DNA from: Mangrovibacterium sp.
GTDB taxonomy: Bacteria > Bacteroidota > Bacteroidia > Bacteroidales > Prolixibacteraceae
Assembly (NCBI GenBank): GCA_050173895.1
Contig: JBFXKJ010000001.1
Location: forward strand, 12,732 to 76,731
Reading direction: 5' to 3'
DNA: 64,000 nt
In this document: in pieces, positions 4,408 to 23,478 of the stretch
Position numbering within the stretch: the first letter of the stretch is position 1
Layout: each line of letters starts with the position of its first letter
Notes under the pieces: model-generated
The model's database searches: none
The model's input: the letters and a program-made list of their open reading frames with translations, nothing else
What the model was told of the DNA's origin: nothing
Position numbers and translations under genes: made by a program

Positions 4408-4417
4408 CTGTTCGGAT

Positions 4418-5893: not shown

Positions 5894-5904
5894 AAAAAAT
5901 TGCC

Positions 5905-6804: not shown

Positions 6805-6840
6805 GTATTCCTTGTTTAAAAACCAATTATGTACTGAAAA

Positions 6841-7851: not shown

Positions 7852-7876
7852 AATGAAAGCCGCAGAACGGCTGTAA

Positions 7877-9805
7877 ATGAATGTAGGAGAGATTGTTTTG
7901 CAAGTGAAAACACGATTTGCCATATTGGGCTGTCTGTGCGTTTTCCTGTGGGTTTCCTGTCTCGGGGAATCAGCTCAGAAGCCTGACGGCCTCAGAATTG
8001 CCGTTATGGCAGACGTCCATTTTCAGAACGTTTACGGAGAATTTTCCGGAGGAAATTTTAAAGGCATTGAAAACCCGGGGAATGGGAAATATGCTACCAT
8101 TCGGACAATGGAGGCGCAACTCCATTCCACCCGGCTTTTCAATGAAAATTACTTTGCTTTTCTGGCAGCACTGGATGACGCCGTGAATCGTCAGGTCAGA
8201 CTGATCATTTTGCCGGGCGACTTAACTGACGATGGTCAGCCATTTAATGGATATGCACTGAAAACGGTGCTTGAAAATTATTCGGAAAAATTTGGTGTCA
8301 CTTTTCTTGCCATCAACGGGAATCATGACGCTGTGCGACCTTTTGAAATGGATGCGGGAAAAGCAGATTACCTTGGAGCAGAGGGACGGCCTCAGCCTGT
8401 CATGAGCCGCGACGGGATCTATGGACGGAAGAATCCGGAGGGGCTTCCTGTTTCCGTCTCTCCGGATATGAAGAGTATGGGATACCCGGAAATGGCAGAA
8501 ACACTCGGCCCTTTCGGCCTGATGCCTCAGCAGAAGTACCTGTACTGGGAGACACCTTTTTCTGATTGTGATGTTTCCGGATACAGCTTTTCGAAGGCAT
8601 CCGATGCGTCATCCCTGGAAAGCCGCCAATGTCTCATCGGCCCTGACAGCCTCTCACTTTCTGACATCAGCTACCTGGTGGAGCCGGTCGACGGATTATG
8701 GTTATTGGCGATCGATGCCAATGTATATGTGCCGAATGGGAATGCGAAATCAGATCCCGCTGATCCCGCAAATTACAGCGGTCCCGGCGACGGCTATAAT
8801 CTGGTGCTGAAGCACAAAAAATATCTGATCGGCTGGGTAAGAAGCGTAAGTCAACGGGCAGCAAAGCTGAATAAAACACTTCTTGTTTTCAGCCATTACC
8901 CGATGGTGGATTTTTATGACGGGGCAGCGGGAAAACTGAAAAGTGTTTTTGGCGGCAAAGCTCCTTCAGGTCGCCTGCCTGAGGAGGAGGTCGCCCGGGC
9001 TTTCGCTGATGCAGGAGTTAAAGTCCACTTCGGAGGCCATATGCACATGAACGATACCGGAATCAAAACGACAGCAAAGGGAAATACGCTGGTCAATATT
9101 CAGGTTCCTTCCTTATCGGCTTATATTCCGGCTTACAAGTTGCTAACCATTTATGGCGGAAAACTGGATGTGGAGACAGTAGTCATGGACTCTGTTCCCC
9201 GGTTTAATGAGCTCTTTCCTCTCTATGAAATGGAATATGCGTATCTGAAAAAGACCGGACAAAAAGACATTTGGGACAGAAATATTCTATCGGCAGGGAA
9301 TTATCGCGATTATGCCGGCTGGCATTTGAGAGAGCTTGTCCGGCTCCGGTTTTTGCCAAATGAATGGCCCGATAGCCTTGCCAGTTTCCTGACCGGCATG
9401 TCCGGAAAGGAACTGCTGCTGATGGCATGTAAAAATTCTTCTGCGGAAGCAGATGAAACATTTCGGGAAGCAGCGAAACTGGCCCGGCAAAAGGGGATTG
9501 ATTTAAACGGATTTGAAAGCTGGAACGGTCTGGATCTGATTGTTGATTTTTACCGCATCAGTCTTGCGGACAGGCTGGCTGTTGAGGATATCGGTGACAG
9601 AAGGCTTGGCCAATACGAGCTGATTTTTGAACAGTTTGCGCGGCAGAACGACAACGGAGATCCTATATGCAAACAAGTTAAGGCATTCGCTGAAAGTTTT
9701 CGGCTTCTTTTGAACGGCGATCCGGCAGGTTCGTTTACGGTCGATATCAAAAACGGAGGAATTGTCAATGATTCACCGGCCCCCGCTTTTCCTAAATCTC
9801 AATAA
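7877..9805 (+). CDS. Exported calcineurin-like metallophosphoesterase with a C-terminal extension of about 200 aa of unknown function
   Basis: Metallophosphoesterase motifs appear in order: MADVHF, LPGDLTDDG, INGNHD, FSHYP, GGHMH. There is a hydrophobic signal-like N-terminus (FAILGCLCVFLWVSCLG). The gene starts 26 nt after the iolG stop on the same strand. Confidence 0.75.
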   Translation: MNVGEIVLQVKTRFAILGCLCVFLWVSCLGESAQKPDGLRIAVMADVHFQNVYGEFSGGNFKGIENPGNGKYATIRTMEAQLHSTRLFNENYFAFLAALDDAVNRQVRLIILPGDLTDDGQPFNGYALKTVLENYSEKFGVTFLAINGNHDAVRPFEMDAGKADYLGAEGRPQPVMSRDGIYGRKNPEGLPVSVSPDMKSMGYPEMAETLGPFGLMPQQKYLYWETPFSDCDVSGYSFSKASDASSLESRQCLIGPDSLSLSDISYLVEPVDGLWLLAIDANVYVPNGNAKSDPADPANYSGPGDGYNLVLKHKKYLIGWVRSVSQRAAKLNKTLLVFSHYPMVDFYDGAAGKLKSVFGGKAPSGRLPEEEVARAFADAGVKVHFGGHMHMNDTGIKTTAKGNTLVNIQVPSLSAYIPAYKLLTIYGGKLDVETVVMDSVPRFNELFPLYEMEYAYLKKTGQKDIWDRNILSAGNYRDYAGWHLRELVRLRFLPNEWPDSLASFLTGMSGKELLLMACKNSSAEADETFREAAKLARQKGIDLNGFESWNGLDLIVDFYRISLADRLAVEDIGDRRLGQYELIFEQFARQNDNGDPICKQVKAFAESFRLLLNGDPAGSFTVDIKNGGIVNDSPAPAFPKSQ

Positions 9806-10451
9806 GATAGATCACACCTAAAATATATTGACTGAGGTTGGACATTTTCGACAGTAATCCGTACAATTCAATTTGACTGGACGGCGTTAACGGATAAGCG
9901 GCCGATAAGTTATAACGGACTTCGTCCAGTCTTTTTGATAGCGTATTTCGATTGAGCAGGAGAAAAGTCTCAACGCCAAGCCGGGGGGTAATTTTACAGG
10001 AAAGGATCTGGTAACTTACTTTTACCCTGTTTCTCCAGTACAAGAGTGACTTTTGAGCTTCCGTTTCATTTCGGGGATAGCTTGTAAGTTGTAACCGTTC
10101 CCTGAAGGAGAAATTAAGATTGGAGATTTTTCCGTTGGCCGTTGCAGTCGTATAAAAACGATGTCTTATTTCATAACGATCGGTCCTGTTTTTGTTCATC
10201 ATCAGGTAACCCGCGCCAAAATTGAGGAACGGCATCAACTCCCGGGTTCCGTCGGCGCCAATACTGAACCGGTCGATCGACTGATTATTATTGTATGTAT
10301 AAAATTCACTACATACAGCAAGCCGGTAGGGGCCGATTTGTTTATAGGACTCAGCATCCAGCCAGATTCCGAAATCCTCATTTTGAGCGAAGGCATACTT
10401 CCCGATGATTAATATAAAACAAAGCAATGCAGTGCCAAACGCGATCCTCAT
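9792..10451 (-). CDS. Putative outer-membrane beta-barrel protein (DUF2490-like)
   Basis: 219 aa with a signal peptide MRIAFGTALLCFILIIGKYAFAQ. It shows alternating amphipathic beta-strand-like segments rich in Y/F/R/N. The family name is from my recollection of DUF2490 sequences and has not been searched. Confidence 0.5.
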   Translation of the reverse strand: MRIAFGTALLCFILIIGKYAFAQNEDFGIWLDAESYKQIGPYRLAVCSEFYTYNNNQSIDRFSIGADGTRELMPFLNFGAGYLMMNKNRTDRYEIRHRFYTTATANGKISNLNFSFRERLQLTSYPRNETEAQKSLLYWRNRVKVSYQILSCKITPRLGVETFLLLNRNTLSKRLDEVRYNLSAAYPLTPSSQIELYGLLSKMSNLSQYILGVIYLIEI

Positions 10452-10639
10452 TTCAGCTTTTTATAACATTTAAATTGCAGAGAGGCTCAGCCTTCCTGCA
10501 ATTTGCACAAAAGTAGAAAAAATTCTGTACTGAACGAGTGTGAGGTTCGGCTGTGCTTTTTTTTTGGCTAATTATAAGCTCCCATTACGTTTTCTGCATA
10601 TTGGGCAGTCAGTCGTCGAAATCCGGGTCGAGCTGGAAT

Positions 10640-11473
10640 TCAGCTACCCCGCTGGCCTTTATGTCCTTTAAAAATCCCGTTGTTTTTAACCATATCGGCA
10701 AAAACGTCAGGGTTGTCGAGATTAATCATATCAATGTTATACGACAGTGCCTTGCGGTAGGCTTCCCAGTCATTCCCGGAGACATAAGGCATCACTTTCA
10801 TGTTTTTGCTGTGGCACGCCCGGATAAATTCGTCTGATAAATCGTCAACCGAACACTCGATGATCTGCGGATTGTAGATGGTTTTTAATGAGTCGAGCGC
10901 CGCTGCGGAGGAAGCATTTACTTTTAAACCCAGTTCCGGGTACAATTCCCGGAATTTTTTTGTCCGCTCCCAATCAGAGAACCAGAAGAAGCATTCTTTT
11001 TCCATTCCCAGTTCAATAACTTCAGGAACAAAGTCCTCCGGGTCGGTATTTTTCATGTCGAAATAAATCTTTGCCTTTCCCTTGATCCATTTCAGGTACT
11101 CAAGAAGCCGCGGCACCTTTTCTCCGGCAAATTCATGCCCGAACCAGCTGCCGGCATCGAGTGTGTCGATCGCGGCCGATGCTGTTTCTGAAAGCAGCCC
11201 CGAACCGTTGGTGGTCCGGTCGAGCATCTGATCATGGAGACTGTAAAAAACACCGTCCTTACTGCGGCGCACATCTACTTCAACATAAGCTGCGCCCGAT
11301 TTAATGGCTTTTGTTGCTGAAGCGTAGGTGTTTTCCGGAGCCAGCCGGTTTGCACCCCGGTGGCAGACCATCTGAATGCCTGTGGCATTTCTTTCCGGAT
11401 GTTCTGCAGAGCAGGAAAAGAACACGAGAAGAATACATATTGAGAACAGCGAAATCTTGTTAAAGGTGTTCAT
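10640..11473 (-). CDS. Glycerophosphodiester phosphodiesterase family lipoprotein
   Basis: GDPD catalytic motifs HRGA...PENT and EVDV are present. The N-terminus looks like a lipoprotein signal (LLVFFSCSAEH). Confidence 0.8.
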   Translation of the reverse strand: MNTFNKISLFSICILLVFFSCSAEHPERNATGIQMVCHRGANRLAPENTYASATKAIKSGAAYVEVDVRRSKDGVFYSLHDQMLDRTTNGSGLLSETASAAIDTLDAGSWFGHEFAGEKVPRLLEYLKWIKGKAKIYFDMKNTDPEDFVPEVIELGMEKECFFWFSDWERTKKFRELYPELGLKVNASSAAALDSLKTIYNPQIIECSVDDLSDEFIRACHSKNMKVMPYVSGNDWEAYRKALSYNIDMINLDNPDVFADMVKNNGIFKGHKGQRGS

Positions 11474-11537
11474 ACTTATATCCGTTTAGTTTTATTCAGA
11501 AACTGATTCTACGATAAATGGTTGATGAACTACGTAG

Positions 11538-11564
11538 GAAGGTTTGTCTTCGCGACAAACCTTC
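11538..11564 (-). terminator. 11-bp stem / 5-nt loop hairpin (GAAGGTTTGTC-TTCGC-GACAAACCTTC), a possible bidirectional terminator
   Basis: A perfect inverted repeat read directly from the sequence. A T-rich tract follows on the plus strand only, so function and orientation are uncertain. Confidence 0.3.
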
Positions 11565-11583
11565 TTAATTTTTAGCCTGGGTA

Positions 11584-11745
11584 CTATCCGGGAATATTTC
11601 CATTCACGGAATAAATAACCTGCAACTCATCCCAGAACTGCTGGTTCTCCTTTTTCCGGATCCATTCATCAACGAGAGGATCCGGTGCGGTTTCCTTGTC
11701 CATTAAGTGGTGCAAGAGTAGATTCCATGGGATCTGATCTTTCAT
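11584..11745 (-). pseudogene. FecR-family anti-sigma factor, N-terminal fragment only (53 codons)
   Basis: The ATG at 11745 gives MKDQIPWNLLLHHLMDKETAPDPLVDEWIRKKENQQFWDELQVIY..., which is colinear with the cytoplasmic N-termini of Bacteroidota FecR proteins. The frame stops long before the transmembrane and periplasmic domains. Confidence 0.6.
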
Positions 11746-11818
11746 AGGAGTTCCGGTTTCAGTAACAAGTAACCTGTGACACAGAAATCCCCCAATGATT
11801 TTAAAAAAAAGCCGGCAA

Positions 11819-11944
11819 CTATTTAAGGTGGTGTACATAAAGATTGACGAAATTACATAAATCAGTATAGTATTTTTCAAAAAAACACCGAAAGGCATTT
11901 CTGTCTCCTTCGATCATTTTCTGAGCGATAAATAGCTCGTCCAT
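11819..11944 (-). pseudogene. ECF sigma-70 factor, N-terminal fragment only (41 codons)
   Basis: Hand translation gives MDELFIAQKMIEGDRNAFRCFFEKYYTDLCNFVNLYVHHLK-stop. It matches the region 2.1 pattern (GD..AF..FF.KYY..L..F) of ECF sigmas. It lies 73 nt upstream of the FecR fragment. Confidence 0.6.
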
Positions 11945-12126
11945 GTTTATCTGAGGATCCAAAGTTTAGGTTTTCAACAAATTTAATAATTTTATGAAAC
12001 GTGTGGCAAGTGGTTCAGCGATTCGAATGACTGATGCGCATCCGCGCGTTTAAGGTAGCCAATATCAATGTTCAGCCACATCCGATCCGACGAACAACGG
12101 ATACTGATAAATGATAACTTTGTTTT

Positions 12127-12168
12127 GGTCATTCCCTGCCGGCTTGAAAAAGCCGGCAGGGAATGACC
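12127..12168. repeat. Perfect 19-bp inverted repeat with a GAAA loop
   Basis: The sequence is GGTCATTCCCTGCCGGCTT-GAAA-AAGCCGGCAGGGAATGACC, 31 nt upstream of the sulfatase ATG. There is no flanking T-run. Confidence 0.7.
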
Positions 12169-12199
12169 AGGGGCAATGTGAAACGCAAAACGATCTGAC

Positions 12200-13648
12200 A
12201 TGAACCGGAAAAAAGACGCAATCCTGGTGTTTAACGGAAGCCTGCTGGCACTGCTGGCTGTCGCTTCCTGCACATCATACGGAAAAACTGCCGGCTCTGA
12301 AGGGAGGCCGAATATTATTCTGATCAATATTGACGATATGGGCTGGAGGGATGTCGGGTTCATGGGATCGGAATATTACGAAACGCCCAACCTCGACAGG
12401 CTGGCCAGGCAGGGAATCATTTTCACCCAGGCTTATGCGGCAGCGGCAAACTGTGCACCCAGCAGGGCATGCCTGATGAGCGGGCAATGGACGCCCCGGC
12501 ACGGCATTTATACAGTCGATTCCTCAGCACGTGGCAAAAGCCGCGACCGCAAACTTATTCCCACGCCGAATAATACGACCCTTCCGGAAGAACAGGTAAC
12601 CCTCGCTGAAGCGCTTCAGGCTGCCGGTTATACAACATGCATTGCAGGGAAATGGCACCTGAGCGACAATCCGCTTAGCCAGGGATTTGATGTCAACATT
12701 GGCGGTTGCCATGCCGGAAGTCCCGGGAGCTACTATCCTCCTTACACCAAGGTACCGTTGGAAGCACCCTCCTCCGATTATTGCCTGACCGATCTGATCA
12801 TGGACAAGACGCTGGAATTTGTGGATTCAGTGAAGAGCCGGCCTTTTTTTCTATACTATTCGCCTTATGCTGTACACACGCCGATTCATCCGGTGAAGAA
12901 ATTGCTGACGAAATATGAGAAAAAACCGGTCTGGAACGGACAGGAAAATGCCGGCTATGCCACGATGGTCGAAAACCTGGATACGCAGGTCGGGAGGTTA
13001 ATTCGCTTGTTGGAAAAGTCGGGGAAACTGGAAAATACCTTTATTCTGTTCACATCGGACAATGGCGGCCATTATGGTATTACCAGGCAGCTGCCCCTGC
13101 GTTCGGGCAAAGGTGCCTATTATGAAGGTGGCATCCGGGAGCCGATGTTTGTTTTCTGGAAAGGAAAAATTAAACCAGGTACCAGGACAGAGGTTCCGGC
13201 GACGAACCTCGATTTTTATCCAACCTTGCTTGATGTGGCGGGAGTGGAAAAGCCTGCCGGCAAATTGCTGGACGGACAAAGCCTGATGCCCGTTTTAACC
13301 GGAACAGGATCATTGGAAGGGCGCCCGCTATTCTGGCATTTCCCGATCTATCTGCAGGCTTATATGAAGAAGGGCGATCCGACGCAGGATCCCTTGTTCC
13401 GGACCCGCCCCGGATCGGCCGTGCGTTTGGGTGACTGGAAGTTAATTCAGTATTTCGAGAACAATGATCTTGAACTATACAATTTGAAGGAAGACATTGG
13501 CGAAAAAAATAACCTGGCAAAATCGAATGCCGAAAAGACCAAAGAGCTTCTGTCGCTGTTGAATGAATGGCGGTCAAAAACCAATGCGCCGGTTCCGGAC
13601 GAACTGAATCCCGGATTCGACCCGCGGCCGGAATCTTCCAGTTGGTAA
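12200..13648 (+). CDS. Cys-type sulfatase (arylsulfatase A family), lipoprotein-like signal
   Basis: The formylglycine motif CAPSRACLMSG is present along with the N-terminal metal-binding motif NIDDMG. The signal is LLAVASCTS. Confidence 0.85.
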   Translation: MNRKKDAILVFNGSLLALLAVASCTSYGKTAGSEGRPNIILINIDDMGWRDVGFMGSEYYETPNLDRLARQGIIFTQAYAAAANCAPSRACLMSGQWTPRHGIYTVDSSARGKSRDRKLIPTPNNTTLPEEQVTLAEALQAAGYTTCIAGKWHLSDNPLSQGFDVNIGGCHAGSPGSYYPPYTKVPLEAPSSDYCLTDLIMDKTLEFVDSVKSRPFFLYYSPYAVHTPIHPVKKLLTKYEKKPVWNGQENAGYATMVENLDTQVGRLIRLLEKSGKLENTFILFTSDNGGHYGITRQLPLRSGKGAYYEGGIREPMFVFWKGKIKPGTRTEVPATNLDFYPTLLDVAGVEKPAGKLLDGQSLMPVLTGTGSLEGRPLFWHFPIYLQAYMKKGDPTQDPLFRTRPGSAVRLGDWKLIQYFENNDLELYNLKEDIGEKNNLAKSNAEKTKELLSLLNEWRSKTNAPVPDELNPGFDPRPESSSW

Positions 13649-13845
13649 GCGTCTAAAGGCGATGACATATAATACGTAGATTGCAGTTGGTTAAATTAAA
13701 AATACAAACATATGAAACGAGCATGGAAGCCGCGGTATCCGCCCGAGCCAATGTTTATAGGCGAGTTCCATACGTCGATGTCCTATAGAAAAGTGATGTA
13801 GTTTAGTACGCAAATTATACACAGCTAATTTGAAATGAAAAACAT

Positions 13846-15963
13846 ATGAAACCCAGTCAAGTGATCATTTCGTCGCTGGCGCTCGGAACGATCTTTAGTT
13901 CCGGTGCTGCAGGAGAGAGCAAACAAACGCAGGTTGCAAAACCGCAACAGCCAAACATCCTTTTTATTTTAGTTGATGATATGGGATATGGCGATCTGGG
14001 TGCTCTGTTTCAAAATCAGCGTGCAAAGGCCAACGATCGAAGCGAACCATGGGAGTTGTCACCTAACCTGGATAAAATGGCTTCCGAAGGTGTTTTGTTG
14101 TCTCAACAATATTGTGCGGCTCCGGTTTGCGCACCCTCACGCGCGTCCCTGTTGCTTGGAGTAAGCCAGGGGCATGCTAACGTCAGAGACAATCAGTTCG
14201 ATAAAGCCCTGGAAAACAACCATACCATTGCTTCTGCCTTGCACGAAATTGGTTATTCAACCGCTGCTTTTGGCAAATGGGGATTGCAGGGCAGTGACCG
14301 CTGGGACGAAAACGGTTCTGAATGGCCGGCGCATCCGCTAAACCGGGGATTTGACTATTTTCTGGGATACATGCGCCATTCGGATGGGCATGAACATTAT
14401 CCCCGGGAAGGCGTGTACCGGGGGAAGAAAGAAGTATGGGAAAACCGGACAAACATTGCGGCCGGCCTGGATAAGTGCTATACGGCCGACTTATGGACGG
14501 CCGCTGCGAAACGTTGGATCGTTCAACATGAGAAGGGACCGGATTCTGAGAAGCCATTCTTCATTTATCTTGCCTTTGACACGCCCCATGCTGTTTTGGA
14601 ATTGCCCACGCAGGCCTATCCCCGGGGTGCAGGCCTTAGGGGAGGAATGCAATGGACCGGGAAAAAAGGAGAGATGATCAGCACGGCATCCGGAACAGTC
14701 GATAGTTGGGTTCATCCTGATTACGCCGGGGCCACCTGGGATGATGACAAGGATCCTTCAACGCCGGAAGTTGCATGGCCGGAAGTATATAAGCGCTATG
14801 CCACCGCAACAAGACGCGTCGACAGTGCTGTGGGCGACATCATGCAATTGTTGAAAGACCTGAATATTGACGACAATACGATCATCGTGTTTACTTCAGA
14901 TAACGGACCTTCCAGAGAATCGTATCTTCCGGAGCAATACCGGCCCAATACGCCCGATTTCTTCAATAGTTTCGGACCCTTTGACGGAATTAAACGCGAC
15001 TGCTGGGAGGGAGGCGTACGAATGCCAGTAATTGCCCGCTGGCCCGGACATATCCGCGCGGGAGAAGAAATCAGATCTGCCAGTGCTTCGTACGACTGGG
15101 CACCTACTTTTCTGGATGCAGCCGGTGTTCCGGCTCCCGCCCGGCTGGACGGTGTCTCCTTGTTGCCATCGCTCACGGGCAAGGGAGATCAGCAGGATCC
15201 TGTCGTTTACGTGGAATATCATGTAGGCGGGAGAACTCCGGCATACGCTGAGTTTGATCCGTCACATCAGGGAAGAAAGCAAAATCAAATGCAAAAGATC
15301 CGAATGGGAAATTTTGTAGGGGTGAGGTACGATATTCAGTCGGCCAATGATGACTTCGAAATTTACGACGTCAGCAAAGATCCGCAGGAAATTAACAACC
15401 TGGCGCGGAACCCCGGAATGGACACCTTGCAGCAATGGATGAAAGCCAAAGTGCTGCAGGTACGCCGGCCCAATTCAACAGCCCCGAGGCCTTATGACCA
15501 TGAAAACATCCCTGCCGTCAGCGCCAGGAAAACGACCGCGGGCATTCACTGGTCAGCCTATGAAGGCGATTTTCCCTGGGTTCCGCAAGTAATCACCCTG
15601 AAACCATCGGCTTCCGGAACAACAGGAAAACCAGATGTTGGTGTCAGCAGGTCAAACGGTAATTTTGCCATGCTTTTCGAGGGGTACCTGAACATTCCTG
15701 AGGACGGGGAATATACTTTTTACCTTACTGCTGGTCATGGCGCACTGATGCGGATTCACGAAGCGACCCTGATCTGTGCCGATTTCGGCTACACTCCAGG
15801 GGAAGAAAAGCAGGCACCGATTAATCTGAAGGCTGGTCTCCATCCTTTCCGGATTTATTATCTGGGGAAAGCCAGCGAAAAACAATCGCTGGAGTTGAAG
15901 TGGAGCGGTCCGGGTATTGAAAAAGAAACTGTTCCGGAAGATGCATTCTGTTATGCGGAATGA
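13846..15963 (+). CDS. Cys-type sulfatase with a C-terminal PA14-like carbohydrate-binding domain
   Basis: Contains VDDMGYGD and CAPSRASLLLG. The C-terminal ~140 aa (YEGDF...GEYTFYL...GLHPFRIYY...LELKWSGPG) resemble a PA14 domain. Confidence 0.8.
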   Translation: MKPSQVIISSLALGTIFSSGAAGESKQTQVAKPQQPNILFILVDDMGYGDLGALFQNQRAKANDRSEPWELSPNLDKMASEGVLLSQQYCAAPVCAPSRASLLLGVSQGHANVRDNQFDKALENNHTIASALHEIGYSTAAFGKWGLQGSDRWDENGSEWPAHPLNRGFDYFLGYMRHSDGHEHYPREGVYRGKKEVWENRTNIAAGLDKCYTADLWTAAAKRWIVQHEKGPDSEKPFFIYLAFDTPHAVLELPTQAYPRGAGLRGGMQWTGKKGEMISTASGTVDSWVHPDYAGATWDDDKDPSTPEVAWPEVYKRYATATRRVDSAVGDIMQLLKDLNIDDNTIIVFTSDNGPSRESYLPEQYRPNTPDFFNSFGPFDGIKRDCWEGGVRMPVIARWPGHIRAGEEIRSASASYDWAPTFLDAAGVPAPARLDGVSLLPSLTGKGDQQDPVVYVEYHVGGRTPAYAEFDPSHQGRKQNQMQKIRMGNFVGVRYDIQSANDDFEIYDVSKDPQEINNLARNPGMDTLQQWMKAKVLQVRRPNSTAPRPYDHENIPAVSARKTTAGIHWSAYEGDFPWVPQVITLKPSASGTTGKPDVGVSRSNGNFAMLFEGYLNIPEDGEYTFYLTAGHGALMRIHEATLICADFGYTPGEEKQAPINLKAGLHPFRIYYLGKASEKQSLELKWSGPGIEKETVPEDAFCYAE

Positions 15964-15983: not shown

Positions 15984-16736
15984 TCATTTAGCTTTTCGTA
16001 ACAAGGCCAGTACCCCGTTTATAAAGGTGAGCGGATGCACCGGGTTGCCGGGTATATACAGGTCGACCGGATATCTGGAGAGAAAGCTGCGGTCGAGCGC
16101 CTCGCTGTCGGCAAAAATACCGCCGCTGATGGCATCGGTACCGGCCAGGATTACCAGCTTCGGATCAGGGACTGCCTGATAGCAGATCTCGAGTGCCCTG
16201 GCCATGTTTACGGTGATAGGACCGGTGATGACGATGCCGTCGGCGTGCCGCGGCGATGCCACAAAATCGATCCCGAACCGGCTCATATCGAACTGGACAT
16301 TGTTTGCGGCATTCAGCTCCCATTCGCAACTGTTGTCGCCGCCCGCCGATACCTGCCGGAGCTTCAGCGAGTGGCCGAACAACCGGTGAATTTCTTTGCG
16401 CACCCGTGCAGCGTCAAGCTTAACCGGTTGCCCGTCGCCTTCAGCAATAATTAATCGGCTTCGGTGGTTCGTCGAAAGTTTATAGTCGGTGGTAAAACGG
16501 ACCTTGTCCGGAAACTGAACAGCACATTCGCCGCAGAAGGTACATTTTCCCAGGTCGATCCGTACGGGACTCACCGCAATAGCCTGAGTCGGGCAAATTT
16601 CAGCCAGTGCTGCTTCATCCACGCTTTCTCTTGAAATGACCGGCCGTCCGCGGAAAATACCCGGCACTTTGGCTGTTGTCACATCAGGAATGAACTGCTT
16701 GCCCTGATGCCATAAGATTTTGATATTGTCGATCAT
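15984..16736 (-). CDS. Ferredoxin-domain / NuoB-HycG-like 'small subunit' fusion with degenerate cluster ligands
   Basis: The N-terminus has ICPTQAI...CTFCGECAVQFP. The C-terminal part is colinear with NuoB/HycG (RFGIDFVASPRHADGIVITGPIT, PDPKLVILAG, PVDLYIPG). Confidence 0.75.
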   Translation of the reverse strand: MIDNIKILWHQGKQFIPDVTTAKVPGIFRGRPVISRESVDEAALAEICPTQAIAVSPVRIDLGKCTFCGECAVQFPDKVRFTTDYKLSTNHRSRLIIAEGDGQPVKLDAARVRKEIHRLFGHSLKLRQVSAGGDNSCEWELNAANNVQFDMSRFGIDFVASPRHADGIVITGPITVNMARALEICYQAVPDPKLVILAGTDAISGGIFADSEALDRSFLSRYPVDLYIPGNPVHPLTFINGVLALLRKAK

Positions 16737-16749
16737 GATGCTTTCAGTT

Positions 16750-18252
16750 TTAGAGGTCGTGCCCGCAGTACGATAAATTAAAGCTTTTGTTGCAGATAGG
16801 GAAGTCGGATATTTCGTTGTTCCTGACTGCCTGGGCCAGCGCCATCCAGTTGTGATGCGAAGGATCCTTGATCTTATAAACGATCAGATCGCCTTGCTGA
16901 CCGGTGACCGCACAATGGCAGATTTCGCCCCGCCAGCCTTCCACCAGCGAAAGCGTAAAAGTCTCCTTGCCGGGCGAAAGACTGAAATTTTCAGGTTTTT
17001 TAAATTCCGGTATGTCGCTGATCAGCTTGCGGGCATAACCAATCGACTGCAGGATTTCTTCTTTTCTGATCTGCGCCCGGGAATACACGTCGCCGTGATG
17101 CTTGATCACCGGCGAATGATTAATTGCAATGCCATACAGGTCGTGCGGATGCGACAAGCGGATGTCGCGGTTCAGGCCGCTCATCCGGGCGGCCATCCCC
17201 ACCGTGCCGATCCCGCAAACCTGCTCATAGCTGACCACTCCGGTCTTCTCCATTCGTGACAGCGCGCTGGGCAGCTTAAAGAGTTTCCTGCTCATCTCGG
17301 TAAAGTCAGCTTCGTAGGTCTCCAGCACGGTATTCAGCCTTGCCGCGAGTTCGGCAGAAAAAGGATAATTGATCTTTCCGGCCCTGATCAATCCTTTCGA
17401 CAACCGGTTGCCACCCCATTCCTGCATGAAATTGATGATCGGCGTACGCAGCCGCCCAAAGACGGCATTGCCTAACTGATAGGCAATATCGGCGCAAATA
17501 GCCGAAAGGTCGCCTGTATGGATGGCAATACGTTCCAGTTCGAGGGCCAGGGTGCGGGCAAATTTCAGTGACCGGTCAGGTTCGTACCCGCAGAGGCTTT
17601 CCCACAGGTTTACAAAGGCTGTGGTATGTCCAACAGTGGTGTCGCCGGCAATGTTTTCAGCCAGGGTAGTGCGTTCCAAAAGCTTTTTCTTTTGCAGGAA
17701 CAGCTGTTCGATGCCCCGGTGCTGATAACCTAACTGGATCTCCAGATGCATGATCTGCTCCCCGTTGCAGATGAAGCGGAAATGTCCCGGCTCGATCACT
17801 CCCGCGTGGATCGGACCCACGCCGACTTCATGGAGTTCTTCGCTTTCGGCCCGGCAGAACGGATAATTTTCCGCCTTTTCGGCCGTGTCAGCCCTGTTTT
17901 GCGCATACCGCACCGGTTTTAACCAGGGATGGTCGCTGTACAGAATCCCGAAGTTTTCATGAATCTCCCGTTCGAATTTTTCAAAATTCGTGTTTTGGGC
18001 CGTCAGGGAGGCCAGGGTAGTCCTGGCATCAACAACAGTGGAAGAGATCAGGATTTCATGCCGGAGATCATCGGCGATACAACAAATGAGCCTGATCCGG
18101 CCGGCGTCGCTGTAACCGAAATAGTTCACGCAATGTCTCTCCGGACCGCTTTTCATCAGGTCAAGATTGGCTTCCATGAACAGCCGGTAGGGATGTTCGG
18201 GAATATCCTTTAAGGCAATCGGCTGATTATTATGAATGGGAATATACAACAT
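16750..18252 (-). CDS. Fused NuoC-NuoD / HycE-like 'large subunit' lacking the N-terminal [NiFe] CxxC
   Basis: FEREIHENFGI marks the NuoC-like part. GPIHAGVIEPGHFRF...LGYQHRGIEQL is the group 4 hydrogenase/NuoD signature. The L1 position reads ENIAGDTTVGH and the C-terminus reads NLSYCGHDL. Confidence 0.8.
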   Translation of the reverse strand: MLYIPIHNNQPIALKDIPEHPYRLFMEANLDLMKSGPERHCVNYFGYSDAGRIRLICCIADDLRHEILISSTVVDARTTLASLTAQNTNFEKFEREIHENFGILYSDHPWLKPVRYAQNRADTAEKAENYPFCRAESEELHEVGVGPIHAGVIEPGHFRFICNGEQIMHLEIQLGYQHRGIEQLFLQKKKLLERTTLAENIAGDTTVGHTTAFVNLWESLCGYEPDRSLKFARTLALELERIAIHTGDLSAICADIAYQLGNAVFGRLRTPIINFMQEWGGNRLSKGLIRAGKINYPFSAELAARLNTVLETYEADFTEMSRKLFKLPSALSRMEKTGVVSYEQVCGIGTVGMAARMSGLNRDIRLSHPHDLYGIAINHSPVIKHHGDVYSRAQIRKEEILQSIGYARKLISDIPEFKKPENFSLSPGKETFTLSLVEGWRGEICHCAVTGQQGDLIVYKIKDPSHHNWMALAQAVRNNEISDFPICNKSFNLSYCGHDL

Positions 18253-18256
18253 GGCA

Positions 18257-19684
18257 TCAGGATATAAGTTTTACGGCATCCTGCAGCAGGGTCACCAGCA
18301 GGGCAGGAGGGGCATAAGCCAGATAAACGGCAACGATCAACAGCAGGTACTGGGGCAGCGATTCCCATGCTTTTATTGCCGGCAGTTGTTTCTCGTCGAT
18401 ATGAATGGGGGGAATAAACAGCAACCTGAAAATATTGGAGCCAAATCCCCAGATGATCATCGTGAGCAGGATCAGCACCAGAGCGAGAATGAGGATATTA
18501 TGTGCTTCGAACAAAGACTGGAAGATCATGAATTCACTGACAAACAAGCCTGAAGGCGGCATGGCAGTCGCAGAGAAAAATCCCAGCAGCAAAACGAGGG
18601 CCCCGGCTTTGTTGTATTTAAAATAACTACCCATATCATAGATGCTTTTACTCTGGTACACCCGGTAAACCTGGTTAAACTGGAAGAAAAGGCTGGGTTT
18701 CACAAACGAGTGGAGCACCACATGAAGAATGGCCGCATAAACGCCCACACCCCCGCAGGCAAGTCCCAGAACAACAAGTCCCATATGCTCGATCCCCGAA
18801 TAGGCAAGCATGCGCTTGATATTTTTAATGCGGGTCATGTATACCGTGGCTACAAAGACCGACAGCACCGCAGCGAATAGCATGACCGTACCGGCCCATT
18901 TCAATAAAGGCGTATGGGAGAAGACAGCGTAAAAACGAAATACCCCGATAAATCCCATGTTCATCAGCACACTGGCCAAAAGCGCGCCTGCGGGTGCCGG
19001 CGCTTTGTCTTTGGCATCAATTCCTGCTGTATACATCGGAACAAGTCCCAGTTTTGCAGTGAAACCGGTAAAGATGAACAGAAAAGCGAGCTTCAGCCAA
19101 AAAGGATTTAACTGTGAGGCATGAGCATATAAGGTATCGAACGACAAATCATTAATTCCGGCCTGTTTCACGGCGAGACTCAGGAAAAGAATGCCGATGT
19201 AAATGAAAGTAATGCTGATGGCGCAGATGAAAACATATTTCCAGGCACCTTCGAGCGCACGGATGTTCCGGTGGTGGTAAATCAATGCGGAGGCGCTCAG
19301 GGTGGTGATCTCGGCAAAGATCCAGATCACCGCAATGTGATTGGAAATATAAGCCATCGAACAAGCCGAAATCAGCATCACCATGGCCGCAAAAAACAAA
19401 CCTCTCGATTTGGGAGTTTCATCGTGCAGCGCGATATACCGGTACCCGTGCCAGAAGGCAGGAATACTGACCGCGCTGATGGTCAGGAGCATGAGCACGC
19501 CCAGGGAATCGGGTTTGAAAAATCCGAACTGCGTATGATTCAGATCATTCAGCTCATTGATGCTGAAAAACCATAATAAAGCGAGGTAGATGACCAGAAG
19601 TAAATAGTTGACAGCCGTATTCCGGTTGAAGAACAATCCTCCGCCAATGATCAGGGTCCCTATCAAAAATATACTGACAATCAT
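18257..19684 (-). CDS. NuoM/N- or HyfF-like antiporter-type membrane subunit (divergent)
   Basis: 475 aa polytopic membrane protein colinear with the proton-conducting transporter family (PF00361-like). It starts 4 nt after the upstream gene. Confidence 0.7.
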   Translation of the reverse strand: MIVSIFLIGTLIIGGGLFFNRNTAVNYLLLVIYLALLWFFSINELNDLNHTQFGFFKPDSLGVLMLLTISAVSIPAFWHGYRYIALHDETPKSRGLFFAAMVMLISACSMAYISNHIAVIWIFAEITTLSASALIYHHRNIRALEGAWKYVFICAISITFIYIGILFLSLAVKQAGINDLSFDTLYAHASQLNPFWLKLAFLFIFTGFTAKLGLVPMYTAGIDAKDKAPAPAGALLASVLMNMGFIGVFRFYAVFSHTPLLKWAGTVMLFAAVLSVFVATVYMTRIKNIKRMLAYSGIEHMGLVVLGLACGGVGVYAAILHVVLHSFVKPSLFFQFNQVYRVYQSKSIYDMGSYFKYNKAGALVLLLGFFSATAMPPSGLFVSEFMIFQSLFEAHNILILALVLILLTMIIWGFGSNIFRLLFIPPIHIDEKQLPAIKAWESLPQYLLLIVAVYLAYAPPALLVTLLQDAVKLIS

Positions 19685-19688
19685 TTTT

Positions 19689-20318
19689 TTAGTCTTTCAG
19701 GTTGCGTAACAGGTTAACGTCCGGGTTTTTCAGCACATCGCCGATCTTGTTGAAGAACACGCCAAGGATGAGCACGCTGGCAAAAATATCGAGCATGATG
19801 CCCAGGTTTACCAGCATCGGCATTTCATTCCCCACCGCGAGCGATAAAATAAATACGCCGTTTTCGATGAACAGGTAGCCGATTACGTGGGTAATGATTT
19901 TCTTGCGCGATATGATCAGGTATAAGCCGGTGAAAAGCGTCGACAGGGCCACCACAAAGTACGTTTTATCCAGGTTTTCTTCTCCGATTGCATGCGAAAG
20001 GATGATGGTAGCCACGAAAATCAGCGATACGATGATCAGCGACAGGAAGTTGGGCAGGTAGGGCTCCGCTTCGCGGGTGATTTCATTTCGCCGGATTACA
20101 TAATTGATGAACCAGGGAACAGCAATGGCTTTAAAACCAATTGTTTCAAGCAAAATGAGTGTCAGGTTGACATGATTCACTTCAGTAAGGGTCAGATACG
20201 TCACGCCGAAAAGGATAAATCCCTGAAACACCAGGATCCGCAGATAGGTCAGCAGCCGGTTGGCGATGCTGACATAGAGCAGCGACATGGAAAGTGCGAT
20301 GAGGAGTATATCGGTCAT
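19689..20318 (-). CDS. HyfE-like small membrane subunit
   Basis: About 209 aa and roughly 7 TM segments. I prefer the ATG at 20318 (MTDILLIAL...) because it lies 1 nt after the upstream TGA (20320-20322), whereas the track start at 20354 overlaps the upstream gene. Confidence 0.6.
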   Translation of the reverse strand: MTDILLIALSMSLLYVSIANRLLTYLRILVFQGFILFGVTYLTLTEVNHVNLTLILLETIGFKAIAVPWFINYVIRRNEITREAEPYLPNFLSLIIVSLIFVATIILSHAIGEENLDKTYFVVALSTLFTGLYLIISRKKIITHVIGYLFIENGVFILSLAVGNEMPMLVNLGIMLDIFASVLILGVFFNKIGDVLKNPDVNLLRNLKD

Positions 20319-20319
20319 A

Positions 20320-21225
20320 TCAAATAAATTTTCCCATAACAAGCAATACGCCAAAGAATATCAGCGAGGCTACCGAGGTCAGGATAAAAATGAACTGCGG
20401 GTTATGTCCGAGCCTGAAACGAGCCATAAACGATTCGATCACTCCGACAGCAACTGCAAAGCCTGCCTGAACGCCAAAGAACACGGGGATTGAAAAAAGA
20501 TAAGGCATCGACCCGATAAAAAAGTTGGAAATGATGGCACCGTACAAGGCAAATTTCAGGTACGAAGTGTAGGTGATCAGTCCCAGATCGAATCCGCTGT
20601 TGTCCAAAACCATCACTTCATGGATCATCGTCAGTTCCAGGTGGGTTTTGGGGTCATCGACCGGCATTCGGCTGTTCTCGATCATTGCGATAAAAATGAA
20701 AACGAAGGCTGCAAGTGCTCCCAACATGTACGAAACCGACGAACCATAGTGAAGCGCGCTGAAGATGCCATGGAAGGACGTTTGTCCGGTGAAAAGGGCG
20801 AACGATCCCATCAGGACGAAGAAGGCAGGCTCGGCCAGCATCGAATACAGGGCTTCCCGGGCCGCGCCCATTCCTTCAAAACTGCTTCCGGTATCGAGGG
20901 CGGAAACGATCATCAGAAATTTGCCCATGGCCAGTGTATAGGCAAACAGGACAAAGTCACCATCGAATGAAATCAGCCCGGGATGATTCCCGTGGGGAAC
21001 CATCAACACAGCCATCAGTACCGACGACAGGTACACGCTGGGGGCGATTTGAAAGATCAGGCTGGTTGTATGGCTGTACACGGAATCTTTTTTCCACAGT
21101 CGCACCACATCTTTCATCGGCTGAAAGATCCCGGGCCCTTTGCGCCCGGAAGTGAAGCTTTTGGTCCGGATTACGATCCCGGTAAAAAACAAGCTTGTTA
21201 TAAGAATAAGGATGAAACTGACCAT
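20320..21225 (-). CDS. NuoH/HycD-like membrane subunit
   Basis: 301 aa polytopic protein. The N-terminal pattern GPGIFQPMKDVVRLWKK is colinear with the QP.AD..KL motif of the NuoH/HycD family. Confidence 0.7.
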   Translation of the reverse strand: MVSFILILITSLFFTGIVIRTKSFTSGRKGPGIFQPMKDVVRLWKKDSVYSHTTSLIFQIAPSVYLSSVLMAVLMVPHGNHPGLISFDGDFVLFAYTLAMGKFLMIVSALDTGSSFEGMGAAREALYSMLAEPAFFVLMGSFALFTGQTSFHGIFSALHYGSSVSYMLGALAAFVFIFIAMIENSRMPVDDPKTHLELTMIHEVMVLDNSGFDLGLITYTSYLKFALYGAIISNFFIGSMPYLFSIPVFFGVQAGFAVAVGVIESFMARFRLGHNPQFIFILTSVASLIFFGVLLVMGKFI

Positions 21226-21227
21226 AG

Positions 21228-23285
21228 CTACAGGTGGTTTAAGAATTCGATCAGGATCCTGATTTTGCTGGCGACAAGCGGCAGCAAGACCGCGGCACTG
21301 ATAAAAATGAAGCCGTATAAAATGTAAGCCTGGATGTTGCCGTTCTGAAGAAATCCAAACCGCCGCAGGAATTTCCTCGATAATTGCACAGGCTTATCAA
21401 TGAGCAGGATTTCGATCCAGTCGCCCGGATGTGTTTCCTGCTCGATCCGGTCCGGGTAAAGGCCGGCGGCGTCTTTCTTGTGTTTTTTGATGAACAGCAC
21501 CGGTTCGGCCAGTTTGCGGTAGGTCCGGATGAAGGAGGAGGCCGTATATTGCATTTTTGCGGTGTCTCCGGTATAGCCACAGCCCCAGGTTGGGCTGGCG
21601 TTCTGCCGGCGTTGGCTGACAAGCCGGGTCCGCAGCAGGTAGATCACGGAACTGAGCGCCACGAACCCCAGGGAATACCAGCCTACCTGCATCAGGGTTC
21701 CAAGCAGTTCATGTATTTGGAGATATGATTCGGTCGTGGCCGCCGGCAGGTATAAAGCAACTGTTTTTGCCAGTGGTATCGCCAGGATGAAGGGGAATAA
21801 TCCGATTGCAACAATGGCCGCTGCAATCAGGTATAAGGGCAGCACATTCCCCCCTCTTCCGGCCTCAGGTCTCCGGTCTCCCTCTTCCGGTTTTCTGTCT
21901 CCGGTTTCCTGTCTCTGCCCCCCGAGAAATACGATTCCGAATGCTTTTGTGAAGCAGATCAGCGCCAGTCCTCCGATAAGCACCAGGGCAAGGATTGAAA
22001 ACAACATGGCCAGGATAAACAGGAACCGTTCGGACGAAAGGCCTTTGAACAGCCCGCTGTAAATAAAGAATTCGGAAACGAAGCCGTTGAAAGGAGGCAG
22101 TCCGCAGATGGCGAGCGAGCCAATCAGAAAGAGAGCTGCCGTATGGGGGATCCGTTTGATCAGTCCGCCCAGCGCTTCAATGTTGAGGGTATGCCGGATC
22201 AGGTAGACATTTCCGGCACCGAAAAACAGGAGCGACTTGAAAAGCGAATGGTTTAGCGTGTGGAGCAGGGCCCCGCCAAATCCGGCCACGGCCAGTGTAT
22301 TCGATTCATATCCCAGGCCGAGGCAACCCAGGCCGATGCCGATGCCAATAATGCCAATATTTTCGATGCTGTGATAAGCCAGCAGCTTTTTGAGGTTGTG
22401 CTGGACGATGGCCAACATCACACCATAGACCCCTGTCACGACCGAAAATGCCAGCACCAGATAGCCGATGGTGACCATGTCGGTTTTGATCAGCATCAGC
22501 ATTCTCAGAATCCCGTAAATGCCGATTTTAATGATCACGCCCGACATGATCCCGGAAATATGGGCCGGGGCAGCAGGGTGGGCCAGGGGCAGCCAGGTAT
22601 GGAAGGGTACAAATCCGGCTTTGATCCCGAAGCCAAAAAAGAACAGGGCGAATAAACCTATTCCCGCCAGAGTGGGCTGGATAGCGCTGAATTTCGTGAT
22701 TGCAGTGAAGTCGAACGAGCCGGTTTTGATCTTCACCCACAGAAAGGCGATGGTGAGAAGAAGGATGCCAATATGTGACTGGATCAGGTAGTTCAAGCCC
22801 GCTTTCATCGTTTCCTTTTTATAGTGCTCAAAAATGACCACAATGAAAGATGATAAGGCCATGATTTCCCACAGAACCAGCAGCATCAGGCTGTTCTGAA
22901 TCGTGCACAGATCGACGAGAGAAGTGAAAAGCAACAGGAATGCAATCAGGTGCATGGTGATGTTGTCGGCCTGGTCGCGGTATGCCTGCATATACCTGAA
23001 GCCATACCAGCCGCCGGTGAAGAAGGTAAAGCTGATCATCAGGATGAACCACGCGGAGAGGGAATCAATCCGTACGGGAATTTCTCCGGTGACCATTGAG
23101 CCAGGATAAACGATTTCCAGCGGACCGCTTGTAAAAACGGATAACGACAACATAATGCCGATAAAGGCGAGCATACCGGTGACACCCAGTGTCAGGATGC
23201 CCCTTCCTTTGGTCGTTAAAAAAGGAATACAGAGAATGGTAAGAATTGCAAGCAGGTTGAACAGTTCAAGCAGCAACTTATTCAT
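21228..23285 (-). CDS. NuoL/HyfB-like antiporter-type membrane subunit
   Basis: Has the canonical motif FVPFHTWLPLAHPAAPAHISG and a HyfB-like C-terminal segment (TWGCGY...QYTASSF). The ATG at 23285 (MNKLLLELF) is preferred because the track start at 23369 is a TTG inside the putative promoter. Confidence 0.75.
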   Translation of the reverse strand: MNKLLLELFNLLAILTILCIPFLTTKGRGILTLGVTGMLAFIGIMLSLSVFTSGPLEIVYPGSMVTGEIPVRIDSLSAWFILMISFTFFTGGWYGFRYMQAYRDQADNITMHLIAFLLLFTSLVDLCTIQNSLMLLVLWEIMALSSFIVVIFEHYKKETMKAGLNYLIQSHIGILLLTIAFLWVKIKTGSFDFTAITKFSAIQPTLAGIGLFALFFFGFGIKAGFVPFHTWLPLAHPAAPAHISGIMSGVIIKIGIYGILRMLMLIKTDMVTIGYLVLAFSVVTGVYGVMLAIVQHNLKKLLAYHSIENIGIIGIGIGLGCLGLGYESNTLAVAGFGGALLHTLNHSLFKSLLFFGAGNVYLIRHTLNIEALGGLIKRIPHTAALFLIGSLAICGLPPFNGFVSEFFIYSGLFKGLSSERFLFILAMLFSILALVLIGGLALICFTKAFGIVFLGGQRQETGDRKPEEGDRRPEAGRGGNVLPLYLIAAAIVAIGLFPFILAIPLAKTVALYLPAATTESYLQIHELLGTLMQVGWYSLGFVALSSVIYLLRTRLVSQRRQNASPTWGCGYTGDTAKMQYTASSFIRTYRKLAEPVLFIKKHKKDAAGLYPDRIEQETHPGDWIEILLIDKPVQLSRKFLRRFGFLQNGNIQAYILYGFIFISAAVLLPLVASKIRILIEFLNHL

Positions 23286-23358
23286 GATCAATTTGTTAGT
23301 TTGTCCGGTGAAATGGAAATAACTTTCAACCCGGTACGGATGACAGTTATTTCGCGAG

Positions 23359-23366
23359 CAAAAGTA
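23359..23366 (-). promoter_or_regulatory. Candidate Bacteroidota -7 promoter element (TACTTTTG matches TAnnTTTG) for the six-gene operon
   Basis: Motif read on the minus strand about 75 nt upstream of the ATG at 23285. This is a single motif match only. Confidence 0.3.
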
Positions 23367-23478
23367 CAAAAAATGCAGGATGCGATTTCTAATTTGCGTC
23401 CTGAATTGTTGTGATCATAAAAATTAAGGAGTTGTCAATTCCCGGCTGATCCCCTGCAGACCCACATTTATCGGGATG

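Follow-up and report, generated by a model that had tools for sequence, protein, structure and literature searches.

What remains of a complex I-like electron path when most of its iron–sulfur (Fe–S) cluster sites are gone, and what could such a complex still do? This question is raised by a gene in a 64,000-nucleotide stretch of a Mangrovibacterium sp. genome (assembly GCA_050173895.1, contig JBFXKJ010000001.1, positions 12,732 to 76,731; hereafter the window). The gene (window positions 15984–16736, on the minus strand like all operon features given below) encodes a 250-residue protein in which a NuoI/HycF-like domain is fused to a NuoB/HycG/MbhJ-like domain. Its translation holds every peptide quoted in the initial annotation of the locus, which named no strand and described a ferredoxin–NuoB fusion; Pfam, NCBIfam and PDB alignments bear out that fusion. 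From the architecture of the gene and its operon, we identify the protein as an EhrS-type small subunit, part of an Ehr (energy-converting, or Ech-, hydrogenase-related) complex of Bacteroidia. Two of its three ancestral cluster sites are lost, including the proximal one, and the third, most likely the middle one, is strictly kept.

The C-terminal domain (residues 122–248; 15993–16373) belongs to the NuoB fold family according to Pfam, PDB and Foldseek matches. Pfam Oxidored_q6 (PF01058; NuoB, 20 kDa) matches residues 136–245 with E = 8.7e-21 and 74.4 bits, well above its gathering score of 27 bits, whereas the scores with the NCBIfam NuoB models, 90 and 84 bits, fall short of the respective cut-offs (116 and 143). 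The best solved-structure matches found with HMMER are MbhJ (6cfw_J, E = 2e-24) and HycG (7z0s_G, E = 3e-20), and Foldseek places 7z0s_G, 6cfw_J and complex I PSST/Nqo6 at the top, with a probability of 1.00 to HycG, MbhJ and PSST. Near the ligand positions, both the MbhJ and HycG alignments run without gaps and with high posterior probability, and the four cysteines of the proximal cluster align with D134, C137, D201 and N231. The four-cysteine pattern of proximal or N2 [4Fe–4S] carriers (CxxC or CC, C, C-P) is absent. At the CxxC pair, D134-N-S-C137 (16326–16337) has Asp for the first cysteine and retains the second; D201 (16134–16136) stands at the third; and N231-P-V-H234 (16035–16046), opposite ‘C-P-P-x’, has Asn for the fourth. 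Exactly one of the four cysteines, C137, is left, in keeping with the initial annotation, which had counted at most one. H234 lies three residues beyond N231 and is also found in relatives that have all the cysteines.

The replacement residues are themselves conserved. In a set of 81 species-level sequences and another of 121 from databases, D134, N231 and H234 are fully conserved (100%), as are four cysteines of the N-terminal domain (C48, C65, C68 and C71). D201 is Asp in 80 of 81 species sequences (Glu in the other) and in 121 of 121 database sequences, and C137 is kept in 77 of 81 and 120 of 121, with Thr or Asn otherwise. On this evidence the proximal site is remodeled into an invariant Asp/Asp/Asn/His set and is more than merely emptied. 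The initial annotation had accepted that its reading would fall if other Cys, His or Asp residues were positioned to ligate a cluster at the N2-equivalent site. Candidate residues do occupy the site, namely the invariant Asp, Asp and Asn with a His nearby, but an Fe–S cluster there appears unlikely, since these positions are devoid of cysteine in several sister lineages (for example, the form with Asp, Thr, Asp and Asn, or DTDN). An AlphaFold2 model of the small subunit has a predicted local distance difference test score (pLDDT) of 71 overall and 86–93 for residues 31–120 and is poor at residues 131–165.

The N-terminal domain (residues 23–98; 16443–16670) is colinear with HycF residues 27–100, with CIGCAACVNACP aligning to SVDEAALAEICP and CIFCGRCEEVCP to CTFCGECAVQFP, and with NuoI/NdhI. 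Among PDB chains, the isolated N-terminal 116 residues match NdhI/NuoI, HycF and MbsN (E from 0.0015). Profile matches to residues 23–98 stay below threshold for the NCBIfam models of NuoI (TIGR01971, E = 1.4e-5, 24.7 versus 113 bits) and of the formate hydrogenlyase Fe–S subunit (PRK12387, E = 6.2e-5, 22.8 versus 204 bits), as does the Pfam Fer4 match at residues 59–72. A Foldseek search of the PDB with the small-subunit model returned NuoB-type chains only and nothing matching this domain. Taken from its sequence, the domain is a reduced homolog of the superfamily’s resident two-cluster NuoI/HycF subunit, fused to the small subunit. The initial annotation had described the gain of a single-cluster domain; as a NuoI/HycF homolog, the domain instead points to a net change from three clusters to one.

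The NuoI, HycF and MbhN subunits carry two [4Fe–4S] clusters on two motifs with eight cysteines. In a clostridial-type fold of this kind, each cluster is held by three cysteines of one motif and the ‘CP’ cysteine of the other. Here, only C48, C65, C68 and C71 are left. C48-P49 (16590–16595) is the remaining ‘CP’ of motif 1, whose other three cysteine positions are S38, E41 and L44, and motif 2 (C65-T-F-C68-G-E-C71-A-V-Q-F75-P76; 16509–16544) has its fourth cysteine replaced by Phe. One complete four-cysteine set thus survives, consisting of the first three of motif 2 and the CP cysteine of motif 1, and the other set reads S38, E41, L44 and F75. C48, C65, C68 and C71 are predicted to form one [4Fe–4S] site, as the initial annotation had proposed from the C-x2-C-x2-C spacing and the remote C-P, noting F-P at the second CP position. 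P49 and P76 are invariant in 81 of 81 species sequences (tabulated in that set only), and position 75 is Phe or Tyr.

Which of the two ferredoxin-type clusters survives bears directly on function. In the Thermus structure of Sazanov and Hinchliffe (2006), N6b is reportedly held by the first three cysteines of motif 2 and the CP cysteine of motif 1. The chain of complex I runs N5–N6a–N6b–N2, of which NuoI carries N6a and N6b and NuoB carries N2 (PMC8577454). The surviving cluster would therefore most likely be the middle of the ancestral chain (N6b of NuoI; medial of MbhN/HycF). The retained set is also expected to lie next to the proximal cluster because relatives with two clusters keep both, and a chain is usable only if its members are adjacent. 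The ‘new cluster at the periphery’ of the initial annotation is on this assignment a middle, N6b-type cluster and not an outer one. At the N terminus of the protein, residues 1–30 (16647–16736) carry a strongly conserved motif, H10-Q-G-K-Q, I16-P17 and P25-G-x-F-R-G-R-P32, at a very low pLDDT of 33–48; this part of the small subunit may make contact with another subunit.

The adjoining gene (16750–18252) encodes an EhrL-type large subunit of 500 residues, a NuoC+NuoD/HycE-like fusion (Pfam Complex1_49kDa and Complex1_30kDa) without Ni–Fe ligands. Alignment with HycE sets ‘ENIAGDTTVGH’ opposite ‘DRVCGICGFAH’, so that A202-G-D-T205 (17638–17649) faces the C-G-I-C of the N-terminal Ni–Fe motif. 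At the C-terminal CNKSFNLSYCGHDL (16753–16794), the cysteines of the HycE DPCxxC motif face S494 and G496. The alignments with HycE and MbhL thus place A202 and T205 at the N-terminal pair of Ni–Fe cysteines and S494 and G496 at the C-terminal pair, and neither CxxC of a group 4 [NiFe]-hydrogenase is present; judged by these positions, the large subunit has no hydrogenase site. The initial annotation saw the electron wire to the catalytic pocket as broken. The canonical wire is indeed interrupted, but the pocket at its end is not a catalytic hydrogenase site.

The large-subunit motifs are nonetheless kept. ‘GDT’ is found in 71 Bacteroidia large subunits, and ‘AGD[TS]’ is found in five of seven large subunits of other lineages (L081–L085), with ‘SSDT’ in L087 and L086 not included. 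The CNKSFNLSYCGHDL motif is common to five of the seven, with a near variant in L087 and a different C terminus in L086. Both motifs occur beside small subunits with all cysteines (L081, L082, L083 and L085) and beside a DTDN form (L084). A zinc or carbonic-anhydrase-like site built from the C-terminal Cys, His and Asp of the large subunit was considered and rejected, because the His varies (His, Thr or Ala) and the second Cys is less than 90% conserved in the clade.

The initial annotation had suggested a survey of the spread of the fusion. The small subunit has more than 7,900 database homologs, and the best 120 matches are all of about 250 residues, 74–99% identical and from Bacteroidia, including Mangrovibacterium, Prolixibacteraceae, Mariniphaga and Salinivirgaceae. 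When every GTDB species was scanned through one genome, tblastn confirmed 472 relatives, of which at least 80 loci at 72–89% identity were fetched; carriers among metagenome-assembled genomes are assigned to, for example, Draconibacterium, Mariniphaga, Labilibaculum, Paludibacter and Prolixibacteraceae. Among representatives of 50%-identity clusters, a search recovered the same two-domain fusion in other phyla, including Wallbacteria, Cloacimonadota and Nitrospirota. Public labels for these proteins disagree, ranging from ‘hypothetical protein’ (Mangrovibacterium sp.) to ‘NADH:ubiquinone oxidoreductase’ and ‘Ni,Fe-hydrogenase III small subunit’.

Relatives with the same fusion form a graded series. 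Some have both ferredoxin-type sets and the four NuoB cysteines, for three clusters (P0124, P0125, P0130, P0132, P0138 and P0148); others combine the C48/C65/C68/C71 set with the four NuoB cysteines, for two (P0127, P0128, P0133 and P0134); and the query clade, P0121/P0122, P0131, P0154 and P0179 have the C48/C65/C68/C71 set only. Because of this series, we consider the fusion to be older than the losses, with no gain of a domain here. The relatives with all cysteines share the operon type and the non-hydrogenase large-subunit motifs.

Forms without proximal ligands are scattered over a rough neighbor-joining tree built with the ligand columns masked; as its branches carry no support values, the tree gives no firm count of independent losses. 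The patterns at the four ligand positions are DCDN, DTDN, DNDH, DVEH, DIDD, DVDS, DDDS, DSSD, DAAD and ECED. In nearly all such forms, position 1 is Asp and position 3 is Asp or Glu. In sister lineages, the position of C137 is Thr, Asn, Val or Ile, and the fourth is Asn, His, Ser, Asp or Ala. Repeated loss in separate lineages is argued mainly from differences in gene order and large-subunit motifs. At least two such lineages clearly differ from the query clade: L086 is set apart by the gene order B-C-D-L-S-A and another large-subunit C terminus, and L087 is set apart by ‘SASSD’ and ‘LSYSGNDL’ in its large subunit. Because a Cys-to-Asp change requires two nucleotide changes, its recurrence suggests selection. 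The L086 locus (3918–13906) is a second ligand-less Ehr-like operon, ordered NuoH-HyfE-HyfF-L-S-HyfB, with DUF190 (PF02641) genes on both flanks. Upstream of it there is also a flavodoxin gene, and downstream one for a universal stress protein; its large subunit is the one with the different C terminus.

The window operon consists of six tightly packed co-directional genes running from about 23285 down to 15984, all with intact open reading frames, and the small-subunit gene comes last. In order, they encode a HyfB/HycC/NuoL-like antiporter-type subunit (21228–23285; Pfam, NCBIfam), a NuoH/HyfC-like membrane subunit of 301 residues (20320–21225; Pfam NADHdh, E = 3.7e-32), a HyfE-like membrane subunit of 221 residues (19689–20354; NCBIfam PRK11492, E = 2e-16), a HyfF/NuoN-like antiporter-type subunit of 475 residues (18257–19684; Pfam, NCBIfam), the NuoC–NuoD-like large subunit and the NuoI–NuoB-like small subunit. 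A Pfam and NCBIfam scan of the operon genes found no separate NuoI/HycF-type ferredoxin gene. Ehr complexes are defined by a group-4-hydrogenase-like large subunit without Ni–Fe-binding cysteines (PMC6349859, PMC7304191, PMC10284858), as found here. Those of Margulisbacteria combine a NuoI–NuoB fusion and a NuoC–NuoD fusion with HyfB, HyfF, NuoH and HyfE (PMC6349859, Supplementary Note 4), and this operon has the same gene set. The function of Ehr ‘remains unknown’ (PMC10284858).

The membrane subunits score best against Hyf and Hyc models. They keep the canonical Glu and Lys residues of ion-translocating, antiporter-like subunits: E168, K250, K281, K378 and E433 of the HyfB-like subunit are invariant in 57 sequences, as are E125, K211, K329 and E384 of the HyfF-like subunit in 69. 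Of the six proteins, the small subunit shows the highest conservation (75.7% mean identity), and its ratio of nonsynonymous to synonymous substitution rates (dN/dS) against the closest relatives is 0.04–0.16. Together, dN/dS, the invariant ligand-site residues and the membrane-arm charges argue that the operon is functional and not decaying. The central Lys position of transmembrane helix 8 in the HyfF-like subunit, which is Lys in MbhH and MbsH, is Asn here (N242, about 18959–18961) and in 68 of 69 sequences. The HyfB-like reading frame as listed has 713 residues from a TTG at 23369, but homolog alignments start at residue 27–29 (L002, L003, L005, L010 and L011) or at 33–37 in remoter loci. 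The start is therefore probably the ATG at 23285, giving about 685 residues.

Of the 80 related loci, 57 share this gene order, which also occurs in Wallbacteria and other phyla. A second HyfB-like gene in tandem, found in 45 of the 80, gives a seven-gene form; the window and L002, its closest long-contig relative, have one only. No linked redox partner (formate dehydrogenase, carbon monoxide dehydrogenase, NuoEFG, ferredoxin or hyp genes) was found in the flanks of the 80 loci. Only two kinds of neighbor recur there, a Crp/Fnr regulator in 17 loci and ars genes in about 8–10. The regulator (cNMP_binding and HTH_Crp_2) is divergent and directly upstream, for example at L009:2434–3204 (minus strand), and is absent from the window. 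Downstream of the small-subunit gene, L012 (10778–13334) and about eight other loci have a recurrent three-gene block, which we take by eye to encode an ACR3-type arsenite efflux pump, a low-molecular-weight-phosphatase-type arsenate reductase and an S-adenosylmethionine methyltransferase; this is probably lineage-specific synteny.

In the window, the operon is flanked by exonuclease III and formiminotransferase-cyclodeaminase genes on one side and by sulfatase genes on the other. The exonuclease III gene lies directly before the HyfB-like gene (upstream region 23286–23480). Its reading frame opens with a TTG at 24402 and shares about 100 nucleotides (24302–24402) with the end of the formiminotransferase-cyclodeaminase gene, which lies on the same strand. 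Since the Pfam match begins only at residue 53, translation probably starts further downstream. The two sulfatase genes (12200–15963) are directly downstream of the operon on the opposite strand, and the one at 13846–15963 has a C-terminal PA14 domain.

How, then, might such a complex work? We lean, if only modestly, toward an Ehr variant without a through-wire, whose lone cluster serves as a structural element or a sensor. With both neighbors gone, this cluster could not relay electrons from ferredoxin to the large-subunit pocket. Physiological electron tunneling reaches no further than about 14 Å. In complex I, N2 sits about 12 Å from the quinone site (PMC8577454), and we infer that the path from the retained cluster to the pocket would span two inter-cluster steps, well beyond that limit. 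Because both neighboring clusters and the Ni–Fe site are missing, a structural or sensing role is the most likely one for the cluster: it may be kept to hold the ferredoxin fold together, a role proposed for the off-pathway cluster N7 of complex I, or to sense redox state or O2. The Asp/Asp/Asn/His set may fill the former cluster cavity and compensate its charge, with two carboxylates replacing the net 2− charge of a [4Fe–4S](Cys)4 center, or may bind a cation. The complex would then be a redox-independent or differently driven cation/proton-translocating machine, in which the large and small subunits form a cap for assembly, coupling or regulation. In a more far-reaching form of this idea, a complex I-type machine would have no electron chain at all, the former N2 site, turned more than once during evolution into a conserved site of carboxylates and His, would be a charge mimic or cation site, the NuoB–NuoD–NuoH coupling unit would be driven by a non-redox event (the binding of an ion, a proton or a ligand) and the lone [4Fe–4S] cluster would act as a redox or O2 gate. 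We think this form possible but on balance unlikely; if true, the coupling machinery of complex I would be separable from redox chemistry in nature.

Several points weigh against an interrupted chain. Redox independence is deduced from missing ligands, and strict conservation of the cysteines and of the Asp/Asp/Asn/His set would also be expected if electrons still passed. The pocket motifs stay conserved despite the loss of the proximal cluster, so the pocket could still be catalytic. AlphaFold confidence is low at residues 131–165, which include the loop equivalent to CxxC, and the assignment of the surviving set to the middle cluster draws on the Nqo9 ligands reported by Sazanov and Hinchliffe (2006) together with the two-cluster argument. 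These points meet in the main competing account, a repaired wire: D134, D201 and H234/N231, with or without C137, would bind a mononuclear redox-active metal (such as Fe or Ni) or another cofactor, and electrons would pass from the N6b-like cluster through this relay at the old N2 site to a substrate in the large-subunit pocket, leaving the complex a ferredoxin-driven ion pump. The four replacement residues are classic metal ligands, invariant in about 200 sequences, Asp or Glu recurs at the same two positions in other lineages, and both the N6b-like cysteine set and the pocket motifs are still conserved. We nevertheless judge it unlikely, since no ligand set is common across lineages (C137 gives way to Thr, Asn, Val or Ile, and the fourth position is variable), the outer N6a-like cluster, the normal entry point for electrons from the donor, is also gone, and a search of the genes flanking the 80 loci turned up neither a donor gene nor a maturation gene. 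We know of no precedent for a metal or cofactor relay at the N2 site in this superfamily.

Three further readings carry much less weight. Asp and His are known Fe–S ligands in other proteins, and the proximal cluster of MBS is held by three cysteines only (PMC7684303), so a non-canonical [4Fe–4S] or [2Fe–2S] cluster could be imagined at the N2-equivalent site on Asp, Cys, Asp and His/Asn. With at most one cysteine here and none in the DTDN, DNDH, DVDS and DDDS relatives, such a cluster is very improbable; all Fe–S sites known to us use at least two or three cysteines. We give equally little credence to a [NiFe]-hydrogenase small subunit that lost its proximal cluster and acquired a new peripheral single-cluster domain, as the initial annotation read it. 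The sequence features it described are real, but the Ni–Fe cysteines are absent from the large subunit, the supposedly new ferredoxin domain is the family’s own NuoI/HycF homolog, ancestrally two-clustered and fused throughout the family in a manner known from Ehr, and the retained cysteine set is the inner one of the pair. Finally, the loss of all catalytic metal sites but one, and the lack of a second HyfB-like gene in the window and its closest relative, might suggest the remnant of a decaying, non-functional hydrogenase operon. This can be virtually dismissed: intact reading frames, dN/dS of 0.04–0.16, invariant residues and occurrence in hundreds of species speak against a pseudogene or decay.

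Ehr has been known from genomes since 2005 and is often drawn as a ferredoxin- or formate-driven ion pump. The fusion was already known; the distinguishing feature here is the loss of two of three cluster sites, including the proximal one, with strict retention of what is most likely the middle one. With these two Fe–S sites and the Ni–Fe site gone, at least this branch, which is very common and strongly conserved in Bacteroidia, would be unable to work as a ferredoxin- or formate-driven pump. We found no prior mention of such cluster loss in Ehr in the literature, in a search that did not cover Marreiros et al. (2013) and Coppi (2005), and a literature search found no cryo-EM study of Ehr. 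Such genes are better not annotated as hydrogenase-3/4 or NADH dehydrogenase subunits. The three-, two- and one-cluster series and the Cys-to-Asp changes provide natural variants with which to probe what the NuoB/NuoD cap does beyond electron delivery. Cultured species exist in the groups that carry the gene, such as Draconibacterium, Mariniphaga, Labilibaculum, Paludibacter and Prolixibacteraceae, which should make experiments feasible.

Among known systems, the Ehr complexes of Geobacter and Margulisbacteria are the closest, with the same subunit set and the same lack of large-subunit Ni–Fe cysteines. In Geobacter sulfurreducens, Ehr comprises seven loci, GSU0739-45, including EhrA-1, EhrC, EhrL and EhrS; this span is matched by the seven-gene form of the related Bacteroidia loci, whereas the window has one HyfB-like gene. 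Unlike Ehr as described, the query lineage also lacks the proximal ligands and the outer NuoI-type cluster, leaving one site. In Escherichia coli formate hydrogenlyase and hydrogenase-4 (PDB 7Z0S), HycG residues 24–156 correspond to the C-terminal domain and HycF residues 27–100 to the N-terminal one, but HycG/HyfI and HycF/HyfH are separate proteins with three clusters in total, where the query is fused with one cluster site, and HycE has the Ni–Fe site that the query large subunit lacks. The best PDB sequence match is MbhJ of the Pyrococcus furiosus MBH (MbhJ/MbhN/MbhL, 6CFW). MBS (MbsJ/N/L, 6U8Y) sets a precedent for a hydrogenase-derived complex without a Ni–Fe site and with altered, three-cysteine ligation of the proximal cluster (PMC7684303). 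Both MBH and MBS keep three clusters, and the proximal cluster of MBS is the catalyst, whereas the proximal site of the query has at most one cysteine.

Complex I has homologous domains in NuoB (N2) and NuoI (N6a and N6b), and the retained set of the query corresponds to the N6b type. It has a complete N6a–N6b–N2 chain to quinone, in contrast to the query, whose NuoB and NuoI scores fall far below the family cut-offs. A cluster kept for reasons other than electron transfer would have a parallel there, as N7 of NuoG is said to be off-pathway, to take no part in electron transfer and to be kept for stability (Pohl et al., 2007). Mrp-type cation/proton antiporters share the invariant Glu and Lys residues of the antiporter-like subunits and work without a redox module. 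They also lack the NuoB-, NuoD- and NuoH-like cap, which the query complex keeps under strong selection.

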